Positions 1 through 41,078 of a DNA stretch of 41,078 nt are shown here, one piece after another. How positions within the stretch are numbered: position 1 is the first letter of the stretch; every line of letters begins with the position of its first letter. Position numbers and translations under genes: made by a program. The notes under the pieces were generated by a model. That model did no database searches. It worked only from the letters and a program-made list of their open reading frames with translations, and was not told the origin of the DNA. This DNA comes from a virus (Duplodnaviria; Heunggongvirae; Uroviricota; Caudoviricetes): IMG/VR virus record IMGVR_UViG_2660238683_000009, positions 1 through 41,078 of that record; one strand, given 5' to 3'.

Positions 1-1173
1 TCAGGCCTTATGGTGGAAATAATCACTCAGGCGAGAAAACATGCTGCCTTCCCCGACAGATTCCAGGGTAACCAGCGGCCAGTGCGCCACCTGTTTATCA
101 CGGTCGTAAAGTTCAATTTCCCCTACCCGCTGATGGGCGCTAATTGGCGCGGTGAGCTCTTTACCATCAAGGGTATATTTGGCTTTGATATGTGGAATTT
201 CGGCTTTCGGTAGCACCATCCAGAACTCTTGTTCCGTTCCCAGGTCGATATTTTCTTTATCGCCATACCAGATGCGTTCCGTTCCGACCTTTTTCCCACG
301 GTGCAAAATTTGCACCGTAGTAAAGTTTTGTTGCCCCCAACGCAGTAATTTTCTTGCCTCTTCCTCACGACCTTTTGCACTGTCAGCCCCCATTACCACT
401 GCAATGAGACGACGCTGCCCATCTACAGCCGAAGCAATGAGATTAAACCCGGCACCAGAAGTATGACCCGTTTTCAGGCCGTCAACATTCATGGTTTTAT
501 CCCACAACAACCCGTTACGGTTTTGCTGGGTGATACCGTTCCAGGTGAGACTTTTCTCACTGTACATATGATAAAACTCGGGCTCGCCGTGGATGATAGC
601 GCGAGAAAGCACAGCTAAATCATAAGCCGAGCTATGCTGGCCAGGTGCATCCAGACCATGCACTGTTTCAAAATGCGTATCCTTGAGATGCAGCTTCTCG
701 GCATAGTTGTTCATCATTTCAACAAACTGCCGTTGCCCACCGGCAATATAGTCAGCCAGAGCAACACAAGCGTCATTTCCGGAATCCACAATTAAACCAC
801 GGCTTAAATCACGTACCGATACGCGATCGCCCTCTTTCAAAAACATCAGTGAAGAACCGACAAACACCGGATTATCTTTCGCCCACGCATCGCGCCCCAC
901 GGTGACAATATCGTCTGGCGTAATGCGATGACTATCGATAGCGCGATCCACGACATAACCCGTCATCAGCTTTGTCAGGCTGGCGGGATTGCGCTGTTGA
1001 TGCTCATTACCCGCGGTGAGGATCTGACCGGTGGTGTAATCCATCAGTACCCAGGACCCGGCATGAATCTGTGGAGGCTGAGGTGAAAAAGGAATGTTTT
1101 CCGCCGCAAAACCAGACGATAAGTTAAAAATGAACAAAGAAGCAGCAATAATAAGACGGCGTTTCAACAGCAA
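1..1173 (-). CDS. dacD: D-alanyl-D-alanine carboxypeptidase DacD (PBP6b); host chromosomal gene
   Basis: 390-codon ORF with N-terminal signal peptide (MLLKRRLIIAASLF...), SxxK active-site motif (SLTK) and SGN motif; recalled near-identity to enterobacterial DacD. ORF track initiates at TTG; the true start may be 1-2 codons downstream. Confidence 0.85.
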   Translation of the reverse strand: MLLKRRLIIAASLFIFNLSSGFAAENIPFSPQPPQIHAGSWVLMDYTTGQILTAGNEHQQRNPASLTKLMTGYVVDRAIDSHRITPDDIVTVGRDAWAKDNPVFVGSSLMFLKEGDRVSVRDLSRGLIVDSGNDACVALADYIAGGQRQFVEMMNNYAEKLHLKDTHFETVHGLDAPGQHSSAYDLAVLSRAIIHGEPEFYHMYSEKSLTWNGITQQNRNGLLWDKTMNVDGLKTGHTSGAGFNLIASAVDGQRRLIAVVMGADSAKGREEEARKLLRWGQQNFTTVQILHRGKKVGTERIWYGDKENIDLGTEQEFWMVLPKAEIPHIKAKYTLDGKELTAPISAHQRVGEIELYDRDKQVAHWPLVTLESVGEGSMFSRLSDYFHHKA

Positions 1174-1899
1174 ACCCTCAGGAGTTTCAAATAGCTGTTC
1201 TTTTTACGGAAATACTTATGAACTGGCTGGAATAAAGTGCAAGAAAATGTGACTACCCTCTCATTTTTATCTGACATGATCTGTTGTCACTCGCTGTCAA
1301 ATTGTCGCGCTAAAGCTGATTAGCACGGTGATATTTGATACTCTGGCAGACAGCAGAAATAACGGATTTAACCTAATGATGAATGACGGTAAGCAACAAT
1401 CTACCTTTTTGTTTCACGATTACGCGCAATACCCCTGAGAACCGCCATGAACAAGGGTTTCATGATTTGTGATTTTAGTTTGGTACGCAATTTGGTACAC
1501 AACACAATTTTCACTTCAGCGGGTAGTCATCAAACTCACCATAACGAGCATCGTTGATGATGTATGTGATCACCACAAATATCACATCTGGACTAGTTCC
1601 GTCTTCATGCGCAGGTATCTGTTCACGCCTCCCTTTCTGCAAATCCTAAAGATGAGATTTTGGGGTTTTGGGATATCTTTTATCCTCAGTTCTCTATCCA
1701 TTATGCAAACCAGTAATGAACCATCACCGTGTGATAGTGAGGCATCTGCCACGATAAGCGCAGAGAAATGATGCAGTGGTGGGCGGACTGGATTGATGAA
1801 AAGGTGGAGTGATCCACCTTAACCACTATCGAAGAGCACAAAGTCTTGCAATCCAGTGCAAAGCTTTGTGTGTATCAGTTTTGTCCAGTGCTCAGGATA

Positions 1900-3218: not shown

Positions 3219-3898
3219 CAGAGTAATACTCCCCATGCCCCTACATCAAAACCACTGATGAATTCGTTATCCATATCAAAACCAAAAAATTTAGAGCCTT
3301 CCGATGGAGTTTCCACCGAAGGTGTTTCAATGCCACCCGCCCATACCCCGGCGGCTTTTACTGTTAGATACCCCTGTTTAATTGCCGCAATTAACTCACG
3401 CGATACATCTGAAATATCAGTATCAGGAAAGACCCAGACCGATATCGTCATGTCCTGGTTATCGACTATCTGCATTCGCAGCCCGGATCCTGCTGTTGCA
3501 GCGTCAAGAATTGCCGGAAGCGAATCATTCCGTCCGTCCCAGTTATTAATCGCAATCTTCGCTTTAAGGATGACACGATAAGTTTCATCGCTGAGGTACA
3601 TGTATCCGGAATCAGGATCGTATGGCCCCTGCCATACACCCTGATCATATCCAAGCCCGTCGGTATCCCAGCTGAAATAGACACCTGAGATAGGCTGGCT
3701 GACAACACGGCTACGCCCGATCCACAATCCCAGAATGTCAAGTTGCACACCAACGGCAGAGTCAATATCAAATGCAGTAATCAGCCCTCTGGTGGCAGCC
3801 GCAACATCAATAAGCGGCCGGGTCATCAGATCAACATGTGCAAGAAATTTAGGTTTGGTGGCGTGGTAGTTCGTGATTAGTTCGGTGTATTTGCTCAT
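3218..3898 (-). CDS. Baseplate/tail protein, Mu gp48-like (DUF2313/YmfQ-like)
   Basis: 226 aa, position between baseplate J-like gene and tail fiber; 4-nt ATGA overlap with upstream gene; recalled resemblance to e14 YmfQ/Mu gp48. Confidence 0.45.
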   Translation of the reverse strand: MSKYTELITNYHATKPKFLAHVDLMTRPLIDVAAATRGLITAFDIDSAVGVQLDILGLWIGRSRVVSQPISGVYFSWDTDGLGYDQGVWQGPYDPDSGYMYLSDETYRVILKAKIAINNWDGRNDSLPAILDAATAGSGLRMQIVDNQDMTISVWVFPDTDISDVSRELIAAIKQGYLTVKAAGVWAGGIETPSVETPSEGSKFFGFDMDNEFISGFDVGAWGVLL

Positions 3899-31764: not shown

Positions 31765-32469
31765 ATGGAAAACAAAGATATTCGCAAATCGAATCTGGCG
31801 TTTTTGCTAGATGAGCATAAAAAAATCGCGGGTAACACTAATGCAAGCTTTGCCGATAAGCTTGGGGTTAGCCCTTCTCAACTCACGCAAGTCTCCGGTG
31901 AAAAAAGCACTCGAAACATAGGGGATAAACTAGCAAGAAAATTTGAAGCCGCACTTGGGTTACCTAATGGGTGGCTTGATTTGGTACATGATGTAACACC
32001 AATTGCATCATGCTCAGATTCTTTAACTTTTGTCGGTCAGGTAAGAAAAGGGTTAGTGCGCGTGGTTGGTGAGGCAATTCTTGGTGTTGATGGTGCCATC
32101 GAAATGACCGAAGAGCGCGATGGGTGGCTCAAAATTTATAGCGATGATCCAGATGCCTTTGGCCTTCGTGTGAAAGGAGACAGCATGTGGCCTAGAATAA
32201 AATCAGGAGAATATGTACTCATTGAGCCTAACACCAAAGTATTCCCGGGTGATGAGGTGTTTGTCAGAACCGTTGAAGGACACAACATGATTAAGGTTCT
32301 TGGCTATGACAGAGATGGAGAATACCAATTTACAAGCATCAACCAAGACCACAGGCCAATAACGTTGCCTTATCATCAAGTAGCAAAGGTGGAGTATGTG
32401 GCTGGTATTCTGAAGCAATCTCGCCATCTGGATGACATCGAGGCAAGGGAGTGGCTGAAAAGTTCGTGA
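31765..32469 (+). CDS. cI: CI-type repressor (HTH + LexA-like S24 peptidase domain)
   Basis: 234 aa; N-terminal HTH (FADKLGVSPSQLTQV); C-terminal autocleavage domain with GDSM serine motif. Confidence 0.8.
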   Translation: MENKDIRKSNLAFLLDEHKKIAGNTNASFADKLGVSPSQLTQVSGEKSTRNIGDKLARKFEAALGLPNGWLDLVHDVTPIASCSDSLTFVGQVRKGLVRVVGEAILGVDGAIEMTEERDGWLKIYSDDPDAFGLRVKGDSMWPRIKSGEYVLIEPNTKVFPGDEVFVRTVEGHNMIKVLGYDRDGEYQFTSINQDHRPITLPYHQVAKVEYVAGILKQSRHLDDIEAREWLKSS

Positions 32470-32545: not shown

Positions 32546-33592
32546 ATGTCAGCGATTGATCAACCTGCGCAATATGTTATCAAGTCAGAAGACGACTTTG
32601 TATCTTTTGTAACGGAAATGCTCGGAAGGAAGGATATCGACTCAAGCGACTTCACATTCCCTAACGTAGTTTTCAGTGGATGGCCAAAGATCAATATTAA
32701 TGTAAAAGGCGATCCAAATAGATATAATTCTTCATTGACTGCGTCAATGCTTTTTGGTATGGCAGAGCTTACGCATGAAATACAAAAAGCATTTACGGTA
32801 GTCAGTCACAGCACTCATAATCGGCAGAAGCTAAAAGATGCAGAGAAAGGTTTGCTGGATATTGTCTACCGAATAAGCGAAGGCTCAAGCCAAGCGGATG
32901 GTGACTCAGATCCGATTGTAAACGGAGTGGTGACAGTGTTTACTCAAGCGATAGGCAAAATGACAGGAAGGCAAGCACTATGCGCCGTCGCCGCTATCGT
33001 CTTAGCTGCCAGCACGGTAGGCTATAAGTGGATCAGTGAGTACTACGAAACACAGCGACATGACCAAGATTCTCAGGTGCAATTGGTGGAAAAAAGCACC
33101 AAAGCGGTAAACGAAGCACAAGACAATGTGCTCAAGTTGTTGATTAGCGGTCAAACAAACATTAGCAGAGAGGTTCTGGCTCACGGCGAGGATGGTAAAA
33201 GCAAGTTGCTTAAAAAGCTTGCTCAAGACTCGTCAGTTGAGAGGGTAACAATTGGTCAGAGAGTGGTAAATAGAGAACAGTTGAATACCTTAAACCAAAG
33301 ACAATCAATTGATCGAAAAAAGGAAACTAGAAGAGATAACTTTTATGTCACGGGCGTTCGTCGCTCGGGAGAAACAAATCAGGACATAAATATTGACGTC
33401 ATAAGGGTTTCAAATGGTGAATCTTTCACCATAAAAACCTCAGCCGACATAACATCTACTGATGAGCTTCTTGAGTTTTTGAATGCTGTAGCCAAAGAAT
33501 CAACTGTTGAAATTTCATACCTAGAGGTTGTAGAAAATGGGCACATTTCAACAGGGCAATTGATAAATATATTCCCCAGCGAACCAGAGTGA
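32546..33592 (+). CDS. Hypothetical protein with one predicted TM helix, immediately downstream of cI (rexAB-equivalent slot)
   Basis: 348-aa ORF with AAGGA RBS; single central hydrophobic helix (ALCAVAAIVLAASTVGY); AT-rich; followed by strong terminator. No family recognised. Confidence 0.6.
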   Translation: MSAIDQPAQYVIKSEDDFVSFVTEMLGRKDIDSSDFTFPNVVFSGWPKININVKGDPNRYNSSLTASMLFGMAELTHEIQKAFTVVSHSTHNRQKLKDAEKGLLDIVYRISEGSSQADGDSDPIVNGVVTVFTQAIGKMTGRQALCAVAAIVLAASTVGYKWISEYYETQRHDQDSQVQLVEKSTKAVNEAQDNVLKLLISGQTNISREVLAHGEDGKSKLLKKLAQDSSVERVTIGQRVVNREQLNTLNQRQSIDRKKETRRDNFYVTGVRRSGETNQDINIDVIRVSNGESFTIKTSADITSTDELLEFLNAVAKESTVEISYLEVVENGHISTGQLINIFPSEPE

Positions 33593-34640: not shown

Positions 34641-35264
34641 ATGTCATCAATCCGCTTAACTACGAGAATGAAAGAGAAAATCGCTCGTAACGCTTTAATT
34701 AAGTCTGGGGTTTTCACTGAACTTGAAGAAGTAACAAAGTTAAAGAACCAGCTTGCACTTGACGCCAGAGTTATTGCGTTTGGCGGTAAAAAGAAAACTG
34801 AGGAAGTGGATCAGTTATCATCCAGGTTAGTAGCTATAAGTGAAGAACTTGAAAAGATGGGATGTTCATTTTACTCATACGATGTTCGTTCTACTTCAAT
34901 TTATCTGACTGTATCTGGCAGAAGGGTTGGATGGCATTCATATGGGAAAGACGGCAACGGCGAAGATATATTGCTCCCTACTCCAACCAAAGATAAATGC
35001 ATGTTTGATGCAGAACACGAAATAACAAAAAGGTTTGATGAAATCTGCGCATTGCAACAAAAACTTGAAGCCAAGAAAAAGGATATCGAATCAAATGTAT
35101 TGGCTGCTTTGAACTCAGTCACAACAGTTAAGCGACTTATTGAAGTTTGGCCTGAAAGCAAAGAATTGCTACCAAAAGAAGCAGACAAAGCAAGTACAGC
35201 ACTTCCTGCTTTACGGGTAGAAGATTTGAATAAGATGATTGGACTTCCTTCCGAGTCCGCATAG
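34641..35264 (+). CDS. Hypothetical protein (ral/sieB-equivalent slot)
   Basis: 207 aa from Met with GAGAGGA RBS (ORF track starts 34581); no family recognised. Confidence 0.5.
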   Translation: MSSIRLTTRMKEKIARNALIKSGVFTELEEVTKLKNQLALDARVIAFGGKKKTEEVDQLSSRLVAISEELEKMGCSFYSYDVRSTSIYLTVSGRRVGWHSYGKDGNGEDILLPTPTKDKCMFDAEHEITKRFDEICALQQKLEAKKKDIESNVLAALNSVTTVKRLIEVWPESKELLPKEADKASTALPALRVEDLNKMIGLPSESA

Positions 35265-35436: not shown

Positions 35437-36405
35437 ATGAGTGAAGTAACAGATTTAGTTGTTATTGAAAAAGCAAATGCAATGACTGTATTTCAGTCTG
35501 CCGACCAGATTGAAGAAATCCTTCAAAAGGTTGAACGTGAAGTTATGTCCTTTGTGCCTGATATCACAACGGCAAAGGGCAGAAAGGAGATCGCTTCTCT
35601 GGCGTATAAAGTTGCGCAGACGAAAACATATCTCGATGGTCTTGGCAAAGACCTTGTTGCTGAACTGAAGGAAATTCCAAAGCTAATTGATGCTAACCGC
35701 AAGACAGTGCGTGATCGCCTTGATGAGCTGAAATCCAAGGCACGCCAGCCTCTTACTGATTATGAGGAGGAACAGGCGCGGATTAAAGCCGAAGAAGAAG
35801 CTAAGGCAGCAGCTGAAGCTCTCGCAAAGCAAATTGAGTCTGACCATGAAATAGCGATTTTGATGGATCGCGAATTTGACCGCCAAAGAGAAGAGGCAAG
35901 ACTCAAAGCGGAGCAGGAAAAGCGAGAGCATGAAGAACGCTTAAAAAGAGAAGCTGAAGAGAAAGCCAGAGCAGAAGCCGAAGCAAAGGCAAAAGCCGAA
36001 ATTGAAGCAGCAGCAAGGCGAGAAGCAGAAGCTAAGGCCGCAGCGGAACGTGCAGAGCGTGAACGCATTGAAGCCGAGCAACGAGCACAGCGCGAAGCAA
36101 AAGAGGCAGCAGAACGAGCTGAAAGAGAAAAGCAGGCGGCAATTGAAGCAGAACGCCGAAAAGCACAGGAGGAGGCTGAACGAATCCGGCGCGAGGCTGA
36201 AGCAAAAGAGCAAGCCAGAATCGCAGAAGAAAAAAGAATCAAGGACGAAGAAGAGCACAGAGCAAAGGATAAAGCTCACCGGAAAGAAGTAAATAACAAA
36301 ATACTTGCTGACCTTATCAAGGTTGGCGCATCAGAAGATGTTGCTAAAAATATCATAACAGCCATCGTAAAAGGCGAAGTATTCGCAACAAAAATAACCT
36401 ACTAA
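35437..36405 (+). CDS. Hypothetical protein with long charged Ala/Glu/Lys/Arg-rich helical repeat (TolA-like low complexity)
   Basis: 322 aa; GGAGG RBS; central ~170 aa of EAKAKAE/AEREA-type repeats flanked by N- and C-terminal globular segments. Confidence 0.5.
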   Translation: MSEVTDLVVIEKANAMTVFQSADQIEEILQKVEREVMSFVPDITTAKGRKEIASLAYKVAQTKTYLDGLGKDLVAELKEIPKLIDANRKTVRDRLDELKSKARQPLTDYEEEQARIKAEEEAKAAAEALAKQIESDHEIAILMDREFDRQREEARLKAEQEKREHEERLKREAEEKARAEAEAKAKAEIEAAARREAEAKAAAERAERERIEAEQRAQREAKEAAERAEREKQAAIEAERRKAQEEAERIRREAEAKEQARIAEEKRIKDEEEHRAKDKAHRKEVNNKILADLIKVGASEDVAKNIITAIVKGEVFATKITY

Positions 36406-36952: not shown

Positions 36953-37660
36953 ATGGATTTGAATAAATTCGATGAGCCATTCAGCCCTGAAGATATCGAA
37001 TGGCGAATACAGCAAAGCGGTAAAACACGCGATGGCAAAGTGTGGGCTATGGTGCTGGCTTATGTCACGAACCGGGCAATCATGAAACGCCTGGACGATG
37101 TTTGCGGCAAAGCAGGATGGCGCAATGAATACCGCGATATTCCCAACAACGGAGGCGTTGAATGCGGCATATCAATCAGGATTGATTCCGAATGGGTAAC
37201 CAAATGGGATGCTGCTGAAAACACGCAGGTAGAAGCCGTCAAAGGTGGTCGTTCCGGTGCAATGAAGCGCGCTGCCGTTCAGTGGGGAATCGGTCGGTAT
37301 CTGTATAACCTTGAGGAAGGTTTTGCACAAACATCTCTCGATAAAAAGCAGGGATGGCACAGGGCAAAACTCAAGGATGGAACAGGATTTTACTGGCTCC
37401 CTCCATCGCTGCCGGGATGGGCAATCCCAGCATCAGATAACAAACCATCACCAGAAAATACCAACCAGAAATCTCCATCGGTTGACTGCGAACAAATCCT
37501 GAAAGACTTCAGCGATTATGCGTCAACAGAAACTGACAAGAAAAAACTCATCGAGCGTTATCAGCGTGACTGGCAATTAATGGCTGGAAACGAGGAGGCG
37601 CAGGCTAAATGCGTTCAGGTAATGAACATCAGAGTTAACGAGCTAAAACAGGCGGCATAA
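36953..37660 (+). CDS. Single-strand annealing protein (Rad52-like family)
   Basis: 235 aa immediately upstream of ssb in the recombination slot; N-terminal region resembles Rad52/22-type annealases as recalled. Confidence 0.5.
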   Translation: MDLNKFDEPFSPEDIEWRIQQSGKTRDGKVWAMVLAYVTNRAIMKRLDDVCGKAGWRNEYRDIPNNGGVECGISIRIDSEWVTKWDAAENTQVEAVKGGRSGAMKRAAVQWGIGRYLYNLEEGFAQTSLDKKQGWHRAKLKDGTGFYWLPPSLPGWAIPASDNKPSPENTNQKSPSVDCEQILKDFSDYASTETDKKKLIERYQRDWQLMAGNEEAQAKCVQVMNIRVNELKQAA

Positions 37661-38657: not shown

Positions 38658-39077
38658 ATGAAACAAATGTCACTAATTGAGATGGATGGATTTCTGAAAG
38701 GCAAATGCATCCCAAGTGATTTAAAGGTTAACGAAACAAACGCTGAATATCTGGTGCGTAAATTTGCTGAAGCGGAGGCCAAGTGCGCGGCGCTAGCAGC
38801 GGAGAATGCGGCGCTTAAACAGTCGGAGAAGGAATTTAATAACTTCTGTCGTCAGGAGTACTACGGTTGGGAGGACAACTTCACGGAAACCCCAGCCACC
38901 GATGCTTTCCTGGCTGAAGTACGGGCGCAGGGGGTAGAGATGTACGCAGATAACCTCGACAACGGAGCAGACGACGTAGAACGAGGTGGTTTTGATTATG
39001 CCGTTAAGTTTCTACGCAGTGAAGCGTCTAGTGTACGTTTGTTCGCCGACCAGCTTCGCAAAGGAGGCAACCAGTGA
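38658..39077 (+). CDS. Ead/Ea22-like protein
   Basis: 139 aa; position and sequence character resemble lambdoid Ea22-family early proteins as recalled. Confidence 0.4.
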
Positions 39078-39370
39078 GCAAGATTGACTATCAGGCACTG
39101 CGTGAGGCAGCAGTAGCAATTGAAACAGTAGCAACACCTCAAAAATTGCTGGCATTTCGTATGAAAGTCACACCTCAGGTTGTGCTGGCTCTACTGGATG
39201 AGCTGGAATCCAAAGACAGGCGCAACGCTGAGCTGGAGGCGAAACTCCAAGCCACTGACAAATTGCATGATAGCGCGTTCCGTCATGGTCTCCAGCATGG
39301 TTTTAGTTACGGTCAGACAGATGATCAAGCAGGATTTGAGAAAGCCATCCAAGCGTATGGGCAGCAGTGA
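39074..39370 (+). CDS. Ead/Ea22-like protein
   Basis: 98 aa, ATGA-coupled to the preceding gene. Confidence 0.35.
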   Translation: MSKIDYQALREAAVAIETVATPQKLLAFRMKVTPQVVLALLDELESKDRRNAELEAKLQATDKLHDSAFRHGLQHGFSYGQTDDQAGFEKAIQAYGQQ

Positions 39371-39384
39371 AAAGGAGAGTGAGT

Positions 39385-39561
39385 ATGAAATATGAAATCC
39401 CGGAATCAGAAGATATTGAATGGCAGCAGGCTATGCTCCGTGAAATAGACAGCGCCCTTGACGTCTTGCGTGATGAGCATGAGCACGCAGTGGTGGTAGA
39501 AGAAATCATCAATGATATCACCGCGAGAATAGCATCACTCCGCGCGTACTCTGGATACTGA
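39385..39561 (+). CDS. Small acidic hypothetical protein
   Basis: ORF track 39367..39561; start at Met (MKYEIPESED) preceded by GGAGAG. Confidence 0.3.
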   Translation: MKYEIPESEDIEWQQAMLREIDSALDVLRDEHEHAVVVEEIINDITARIASLRAYSGY

Positions 39562-39571
39562 GGGCTAACCC

Positions 39572-40588
39572 ATGACCAAACTAACCAAAGAACGCTTGGA
39601 AGAAATCGCAGAGCTTGCAAGAAAGGCGACGTACAAGCCATGTGCAATGCACATGACGAATTTATTGGTAGTATGCGATAGCGAAGTTATCGAGGAAATG
39701 GCCCGCCAGTTGCTTGCAAGCATGGAGCAGGAGCCTGTGTCGTACACCTGTAGTGACGCGTTAGATGATGTTTACTGTGGTAGCGCAGCCATGATGGGGC
39801 CCGCTGGCGCTGTGGGAGAAGTACCACTCTACGCAGCACCACAGTTACCTCATCCAGCACCGGAGCATCTTGCAGCAGTGGCAACGCTTGAAAGCAAAGG
39901 CTACACCTGGTACGGCGGCCAGCTATGGAAACCACCACTCGGCAAAGCGCCTGCATACATCACAGATGAGCAGCCAGCGGTGCCAGAAACGCTGCCGTGT
40001 CCAGTGATGCTTGAGCCGGGACTTCGCTTCGGCAAAGGCGTACGCACTCAAACCATGCTGGATGCATTGCAGCGCCGGGATGAATATTACGCCGACCTTG
40101 AAGCTATGACGCCAGGGCAGCGCGCCGATCACGATGCGGGCATGAAAGAGTTCGCCGCCATGCTTCAGGCCGAACCTGTAAGTAATAGTGATGAGTTACC
40201 GCTGGACTATCTGCAAGGACACAAAGACGGCCTTGAATGGGCGGCGCAACTGGCAGAGGCCAATCATCCGCAAACAGGTGACTGGTTATACGACGACCCA
40301 ATCGATCTTGCCAGGGCGATTCGCAAAGGTCCGGATATGCCTACTGTTCAGGGTGGCAATTCTCCGGTAACTCCGGATGGTTGGATAAGCTGTAGTGAGC
40401 AGATGCCTTCCGCAGGGTAACAAGTGTTGGCGTACCGTCCAGACGCGCCGGAAAGTAATGATCCATTAATCAAGATGGCAACGTACGTTGGCGGGTCAGC
40501 ACACGGACACGGCTTTGATTGCTACTGCAAGCCAACCCACTGGATGCCGCTGCCAGCAGCACCGCAGCAGGAGGTTAACCGTGGCTAA
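39572..40588 (+). pseudogene. DUF551-family protein interrupted by in-frame TAA (40418..40420)
   Basis: ORF ends ...DGWISCSEQMPSAG-stop, and the same frame continues QVLAYRPDAPESNDPLIKMATYVGGSAHGHGFDCYCKPTHWMPLP to a stop at 40586..40588; together this resembles one DUF551 domain. Confidence 0.5.
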
Positions 40589-40688
40589 CCTGCAACTTGC
40601 CGTCAAAGGTGAATAACAATCCTCGCACTCGCGGGGATTTCTTTTATCTGAACTCGCTACGGCGAGTTTTGTTTTATGGAGATGATAA

Positions 40689-40856
40689 ATGCAATTCCGA
40701 GTCACAGGTGAATGGAATGGAGAACCATTCAACAGGGTTATCGAAGCAGAGGACATCAATGACTGCTATGACCACTGGATGATATGGGCGCAGATAGCAC
40801 ATGCAGAAGTAACCAATATTCGAATTGAAGAACTGAAAGAACACCAAGCCGCCTGA
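40689..40856 (+). CDS. Small hypothetical protein upstream of excisionase
   Basis: 55-aa ORF (MQFRVTGEWNGEPFNRVIEAEDINDCYDHW...), GGAG RBS, followed by GCCGCC-TGAT-GGCGG hairpin and T-run; below the ORF-track size cutoff. Confidence 0.4.
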   Translation: MQFRVTGEWNGEPFNRVIEAEDINDCYDHWMIWAQIAHAEVTNIRIEELKEHQAA

Positions 40857-40886
40857 TGGCGGTTTCTTTTTGCCTGGAGAATTAAG

Positions 40887-41078
40887 ATGACCGATACCAG
40901 CCTGATTCCTGAGAAAGAAGTGATGAACAAGCTCGGTGTTTCATCACGTCAGACAATCTGGAACTATACCAAACGGCACGGATTTCCAAAGCCAGTCAGA
41001 ACCCACCCCAAATCATACCTTCGTGAAGCTGTTGAGGGGTGGATTCTTAACGGTGGCGTTAATCAGAAATGCTCCTGA
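40887..41078 (+). CDS. AlpA-family excisionase / transcriptional regulator
   Basis: 63 aa with HTH (MNKLGVSSRQTIWNYTKRHGFPKP) typical of AlpA/Xis proteins; at the expected position before an integrase beyond the window. Confidence 0.6.
   Translation: MTDTSLIPEKEVMNKLGVSSRQTIWNYTKRHGFPKPVRTHPKSYLREAVEGWILNGGVNQKCS

Follow-up and report, generated by a model that had tools for sequence, protein, structure and literature searches.

The locus considered here raises the question of whether two open reading frames that follow each other in one frame, with a single TAA between them, are the halves of one gene, and if so how the stop came to be there. It lies near the right end of a 41,078-nt stretch of viral DNA (IMG/VR record IMGVR_UViG_2660238683_000009), which as a whole we call the window. 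The ORF at 39572..40420 ends in TAA and its frame is open for 55 codons more, to a stop at 40586..40588, as the initial annotation had it. That annotation took the two parts together for one DUF551 domain, and left the choice between nonsense mutation, sequencing error and recoding. The features involved are the following.

39572..40420, plus strand: 5' part of the DUF551 gene, 282 codons and the premature TAA (ORF listing and translation)
40418..40420, plus strand: premature TAA, for which the ancestral codon is GAA (Glu283), from comparison with relatives
40421..40588, plus strand: 3' remnant, 55 in-frame sense codons and the original TAA at 40586..40588
about 40379..40567, plus strand: DUF551 (PF04448) domain interrupted by the stop, residues 270-332 of the read-through translation (Pfam)
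40618-40639 and 40650-40669, plus strand: two tandem terminator-like hairpins just past the original stop, conserved in homologous prophages

The 282-codon ORF begins with the ATG at 39572, preceded at about 39560-39564 by a GAGGG match to the Shine-Dalgarno sequence (-6.1 kcal/mol), and the intact orthologues P0005, P0002, P0003 and P0006 begin with the same MTKLTKERLEEI. Its product has the C-terminus ...DGWISCSEQMPSAG, which is followed by the TAA at 40418..40420. The open frame beyond the stop is by itself no more than chance; of the 50 stretches in the whole window that stay open for 150 codons or more, 12 are followed in frame by at least 55 further open codons. That the split gene is real rests on DUF551 homology across the stop, and not on open-frame geometry. 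Long open stretches in the same frame are also found after the stops at 3220, 7607, 13874, 17584, 20910, 24166 (-) and 37658 (+), and these pairs look like ordinary adjacent genes, for example a Rad52-like gene and then SSB at 37658.

RefSeq has two unrelated CDSs for the disrupted gene, neither of them flagged as a pseudogene. One, at 39653-40420 (+), is a 255-aa 'hypothetical protein' that starts at Met28 with no Shine-Dalgarno match, and the other, at 40424-40588 (+), is a 54-aa 'DUF551 domain-containing protein' (WP_162761937.1) with a GTG start. The 255-aa and 54-aa halves should instead be taken as one disrupted gene.

The Pfam profile for DUF551 (PF04448) has 68 positions and a gathering cut-off of 22 bits. 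The 282-aa product alone scores 17 bits over profile positions 1-11, under the cut-off, and the 55-aa remnant 24.4 bits over positions 54-68 only, while the joined read-through sequence reaches 51.5 bits (E 2e-13) with all 68 profile positions covered, and so belongs to the family. Given this coverage of the profile the two parts are, as had been proposed, one DUF551 domain, broken at about its 14th residue. The motifs of the family, W-[IV]-x-C-S-E-R/Q-M-P, V-L, Y-x-G and T-H-W-M-P-L-P, are all present and are divided by the stop, with WISCSEQMP on its 5' side and VLAY, YVGG and THWMPLP on its 3' side, the remnant encoding the core of the domain (VLAYRP ... THWMPLP). The 282-aa product thus consists of three non-DUF551 modules, an N-terminal helical one and middle ones (PHROG 2960/19524 and the widespread EPVSN...KGPDMP module), and just the first 13 or so residues of DUF551.

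With regard to the codon expected at the site, the alignment with intact relatives proposed in the initial annotation gives an unequivocal answer, with G at 40418, and hence GAA (Glu) at 40418..40420, in all 22 related DNA sequences. The T at 40418, which is position 45937 of contig KQ087716.1, is the only window base in 40150..40700 that is found in none of the 22. The complete genomes of E. coli strains 81, WEM25 and PK12 each have GAA at the site, in an annotated intact 'DUF551 domain-containing protein'. All three have the same C-terminal allele as the window (98.7% over 548 nt for strain 81), and the 165 nt downstream of the stop are identical to the intact allele of strain 81. A 30-mer made degenerate at the mutated base matched 17 IMG/VR contigs, all with G, and one of the GTDB species representatives, Enterobacter bugandensis, also with G. 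The exact TAA-bearing 30-mer was found neither in IMG/VR nor in the JGI metagenomes, and an 81-nt probe detected the TAA allele in none of 5,426 complete E. coli genomes, which gave GAA alleles only.

The closest comparison is with P0005 (from Logan SRR24658709), a full-length 338-aa orthologue in the 90%-identity cluster of the truncated product. It is the same gene at the same prophage position, between the Ead/Ea22-like genes on one side and the 55-aa ORF and xis on the other. Its N-terminus is that of the window protein, its residue 283 is Glu, and the protein identity is 99%. At the DNA level 9 of 1017 nt differ. Five of the differences form a patch around gene positions 672-728 and three another at 993-998, the ninth being the G/T difference at 847 (window 40418). 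P0005, WP_241466642.1 (strain 81) and WP_251003644.1 (WEM25) have their C-terminal DUF551 allele in common with the window and, with GAA at the site in place of the window's TAA, encode the whole domain. Intact orthologues with a sense codon, and a stop that relatives do not share, are the marks of a nonsense-mutated gene, and both are seen here.

The protein data agree. When the intact orthologue was compared with 5.8 billion proteins there were 7,920 matches, of which the best 120, with cluster members, made a comparison set of 128 sequences. Of these best 120 matches and cluster members, 106 have the DGW..E.MP motif; SAG-E is read in 98 of the 106, and 104 of them run 55-79 residues past the site. 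The other two, P0001 and P0010, stop there, and both come from the window's own contig, as annotated in GenBank and in RefSeq. Homologues with a natural end at this position, which the initial annotation had named as evidence against its proposal, are therefore not seen, the window's own contig being the only one of the 106 to stop. In a more diverse alignment, of 90 DUF551 relatives that for the most part represent 50%-identity clusters, different residues occupy the site of the stop (E 26, Q 19, D 16, G 8, K 6), and in all 90 there is a residue at this position and the sequence goes on to the nearly invariant T-H-W-M-P-L-P.

To place the stop in a structure we used an AlphaFold2 model, built from the 90-sequence alignment, of P0011, a protein with a tail that is exactly the C-terminal 85 residues of the window gene with the Glu restored. 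The mean pLDDT is 65.5 and the pTM 0.29, with pLDDT of 62-86 for the DUF551 blocks; a poor model of the whole protein is to be expected, as its modules are joined by linkers. The predicted strands of at least three residues (224-229, 239-246, 249-251 and 263-266) are all past the stop position, residue 223, so that the 282-aa product would lack the whole DUF551 β core. With the core strands and the conserved THWMPLP end missing, whatever DUF551 contributes is presumably lost from it. Foldseek comparison of the model with PDB gave no match at E < 1, only scattered insignificant matches to small SH3/chromo/Tudor-like beta-barrels, which may be a weak hint as to the fold class of DUF551.

DUF551 is described as a portable domain, carried by CPS-53 YfdS and, in Stx phages, by the V2 variant of Ea22 (PMC10834534; PMC4776307), and has no known biochemical activity (PMC10834534, PMC4776307). 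Ea22 reportedly promotes lysogeny, and sensitivity to H2O2 has been reported for yfdS mutants (PMC10834534, PMC4776307). Ea22 V2 and CPS-53 YfdS are, like the window protein, mosaic prophage proteins of the early region, with a portable C-terminal DUF551 and a location in an exo-xis-type region. The window protein differs in not having an Ead_Ea22 (PF13935) signature of its own, there being no match at E up to 1 in the 282-aa or the read-through protein, and it is the neighbouring ORF at 39074..39370 (+) that bears one (45.7 bits). Comparison of the sequence of the protein itself with the PDB produced no meaningful match (best E 0.29), PADLOC gave no matches, and all of the PHROG matches are of 'unknown function'.

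The mosaic structure is also evident in relatives that have a different C-terminus. Enterobacteria phage HK225 gp57 (P0022) has N-terminal and middle modules about 98% identical to those of the window at the nucleotide level in the aligned parts of gene positions 1-808 (the alignment covers 46% of the 1129-nt query, in two pieces), and then a different, non-DUF551 tail, which is module exchange and not truncation. P0003, P0004, P0006 and P0022 all have the first 268 or so residues as in the window gene and then entirely different non-DUF551 tails that finish in a similar AAPQ(Q/L)E motif. The junction is at about 40370-40390 in the window (codons ~264-272, NSPVTPDGW), and this arrangement points to C-terminal modules that may be exchanged by recombination at short conserved junction sequences.

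The truncated protein is KLX66671.1 (SK74_02868), on contig KQ087716.1 of E. coli assembly GCA_001030425.1; 7,507 overlapping bases of window and contig are identical, window position p being contig position p+5519. A literature search on the accessions of the assembly, the contig and the protein gave no result. The left 1.9 kb or so of the window (1-1885) is host DNA from the flank with dacD, the gene for penicillin-binding protein 6b, and beyond the right end of the window the contig has a tyrosine integrase gene and then sbcB, and the prophage thus lies between dacD and sbcB. The same site is used by Stx2 phage 1717. The closest relatives differ between the structural genes and the early region: the former (baseplate J, DUF3383) are about 90% identical to those of Citrobacter phage Omnitron and of E. 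coli phages such as vB_EcoM-611R5, and in the latter there are patches of about 97% identity to Sf6, IME10 and mEp-type lambdoid phages.

Upstream of the DUF551 gene are genes for a Rad52-like recombinase, ssb, abc2, DUF2737, a phrog_614 gene, an Ead/Ea22-like gene and a 64-aa ORF, and downstream there is a 55-aa ORF at 40689..40856 (+) and then an excisionase-like gene at 40887..41078. This early-left accessory region is the counterpart of the lambda exo-xis or P22 ea region. The region has six terminator-like sites against 1.9 expected from shuffles. One of this type, in addition to the tandem pair given above, is a third hairpin at 40846-40865 (+), after the 55-aa ORF and upstream of the excisionase-like gene. 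Elsewhere in the window there is a 348-aa gene at 32546-33592 (+), directly downstream of an S24-type repressor gene (31765-32469), and a 322-aa gene at 35437-36405 (+), between an Nmad5 gene and cIII, neither of them with a Pfam or PADLOC match. The Nmad5 gene, at 34641-35264 (+), is a strong match (PF18757, 240 bits) and lies between the two. The 348-aa and 322-aa genes are at immunity and early-left positions typical of morons, and are possible candidates for uncharacterised genes of defence or host takeover.

Of the three explanations originally offered we favour the first, and consider it probable that a recent, private GAA to TAA nonsense mutation has truncated a dispensable prophage accessory gene. 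One G to T transversion at 40418 would have changed GAA (Glu283) to TAA in a mosaic gene of 338 codons, and translation from the ATG at 39572 would now stop after 282 residues, giving a product that would retain the three N-terminal and middle modules and lose the DUF551 beta core and the THWMPLP end. In its favour are the stop, the ancestral codon, the privacy of the change and the division of the domain, as documented above, together with the placement of the stop in a model of moderate confidence. Against it is that the TAA allele is known from the data of one strain only. If the event is young there would have been too little time for more decay, and it is for this reason that the remnant would still be identical to intact alleles. 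The event would be one of neutral decay of a dispensable prophage gene, and the base call is presumably genuine in the organism.

There is some chance, though a minor one, that the strain truly has GAA and that the base at 40418 was miscalled as T in a draft assembly. The window comes from a draft WGS contig, the T occurs as a singleton, confined to the data of this assembly, and the 165 nt downstream do not differ from intact alleles, an absence of further decay that fits a base-call error equally well as a young mutation. However the exact 282-aa product is on record on three contigs, in NCBI and also in Logan read assemblies, the Logan source being either an independent isolate or the same run, and this argues against an error by one assembler. 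In short-read assemblies substitution errors seldom reach the consensus, and the common platform errors are indels. It is this rarity, with the presence of the product in both sets of assemblies, that makes us disfavour the explanation. Also the remainder of the prophage is a tidy set of long ORFs, with no other broken gene obvious in the window.

Recoding, the third of the explanations, is effectively excluded. Recoding or a functional split, which we think very improbable, would involve either read-through of the UAA, programmed or basal, with some full-length protein made, or reinitiation after it at the GTG at 40424, to yield a 282-aa protein and a 54-aa DUF551-core peptide that reassemble or act independently. 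The GTG is indeed only 3 nt past the premature TAA, RefSeq has annotated the 54-aa ORF, and termination-reinitiation over such distances is well established in bacteria. However the AGGG-like Shine-Dalgarno sequence upstream of this GTG is weak, at -3.9 kcal/mol against -6 to -11.6 kcal/mol for neighbouring genes, though some low-level reinitiation may occur there. The break also separates the beta-strand core, in a domain of about 65 residues, from its N-terminal W-I-x-C-S-E-x-M-P segment. In addition the stop is present in none of the 22 DNA relatives and none of the 104 protein relatives, so nothing has evolved around it, and it is UAA, the least leaky stop in E. coli, and not the leaky UGA or UAG, in a stimulatory context, that programmed read-through would use unless the element supplied a cognate suppressor tRNA. 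As the stop is not conserved, is UAA, and is in a window with no tRNA gene and no Rfam element, we reject recoding. A functional split, if true, would amount to a natural experiment in domain fission, done on a phage domain that is uncharacterised.

The proposal that this lineage normally ends at ...MPSAG, with the downstream similarity left over from module exchange, gains something from the swapping of C-terminal modules between phages in this family (P0003, P0004, P0006 and HK225 gp57 having non-DUF551 tails) but is refuted, as the swap junction is elsewhere, upstream of the stop at NSPV(T/I)PDGW, the sequence to either side of the stop follows intact alleles without a break and with one base different, all 22 relatives have G, and among the best 120 of the 7,920 matches and cluster members the homologues read through and no other ends at the stop.

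A private nonsense mutation thus remains the preferred explanation. The gene is an ordinary case of a prophage gene, from a known domain family, disrupted by a nonsense codon, with nothing to indicate special decoding, and one private inactivating mutation in a dispensable accessory gene matters little in itself. The strain does however carry a natural allele without DUF551, and may be useful as a control in studies of the role of the accessory region in lysogeny decisions.
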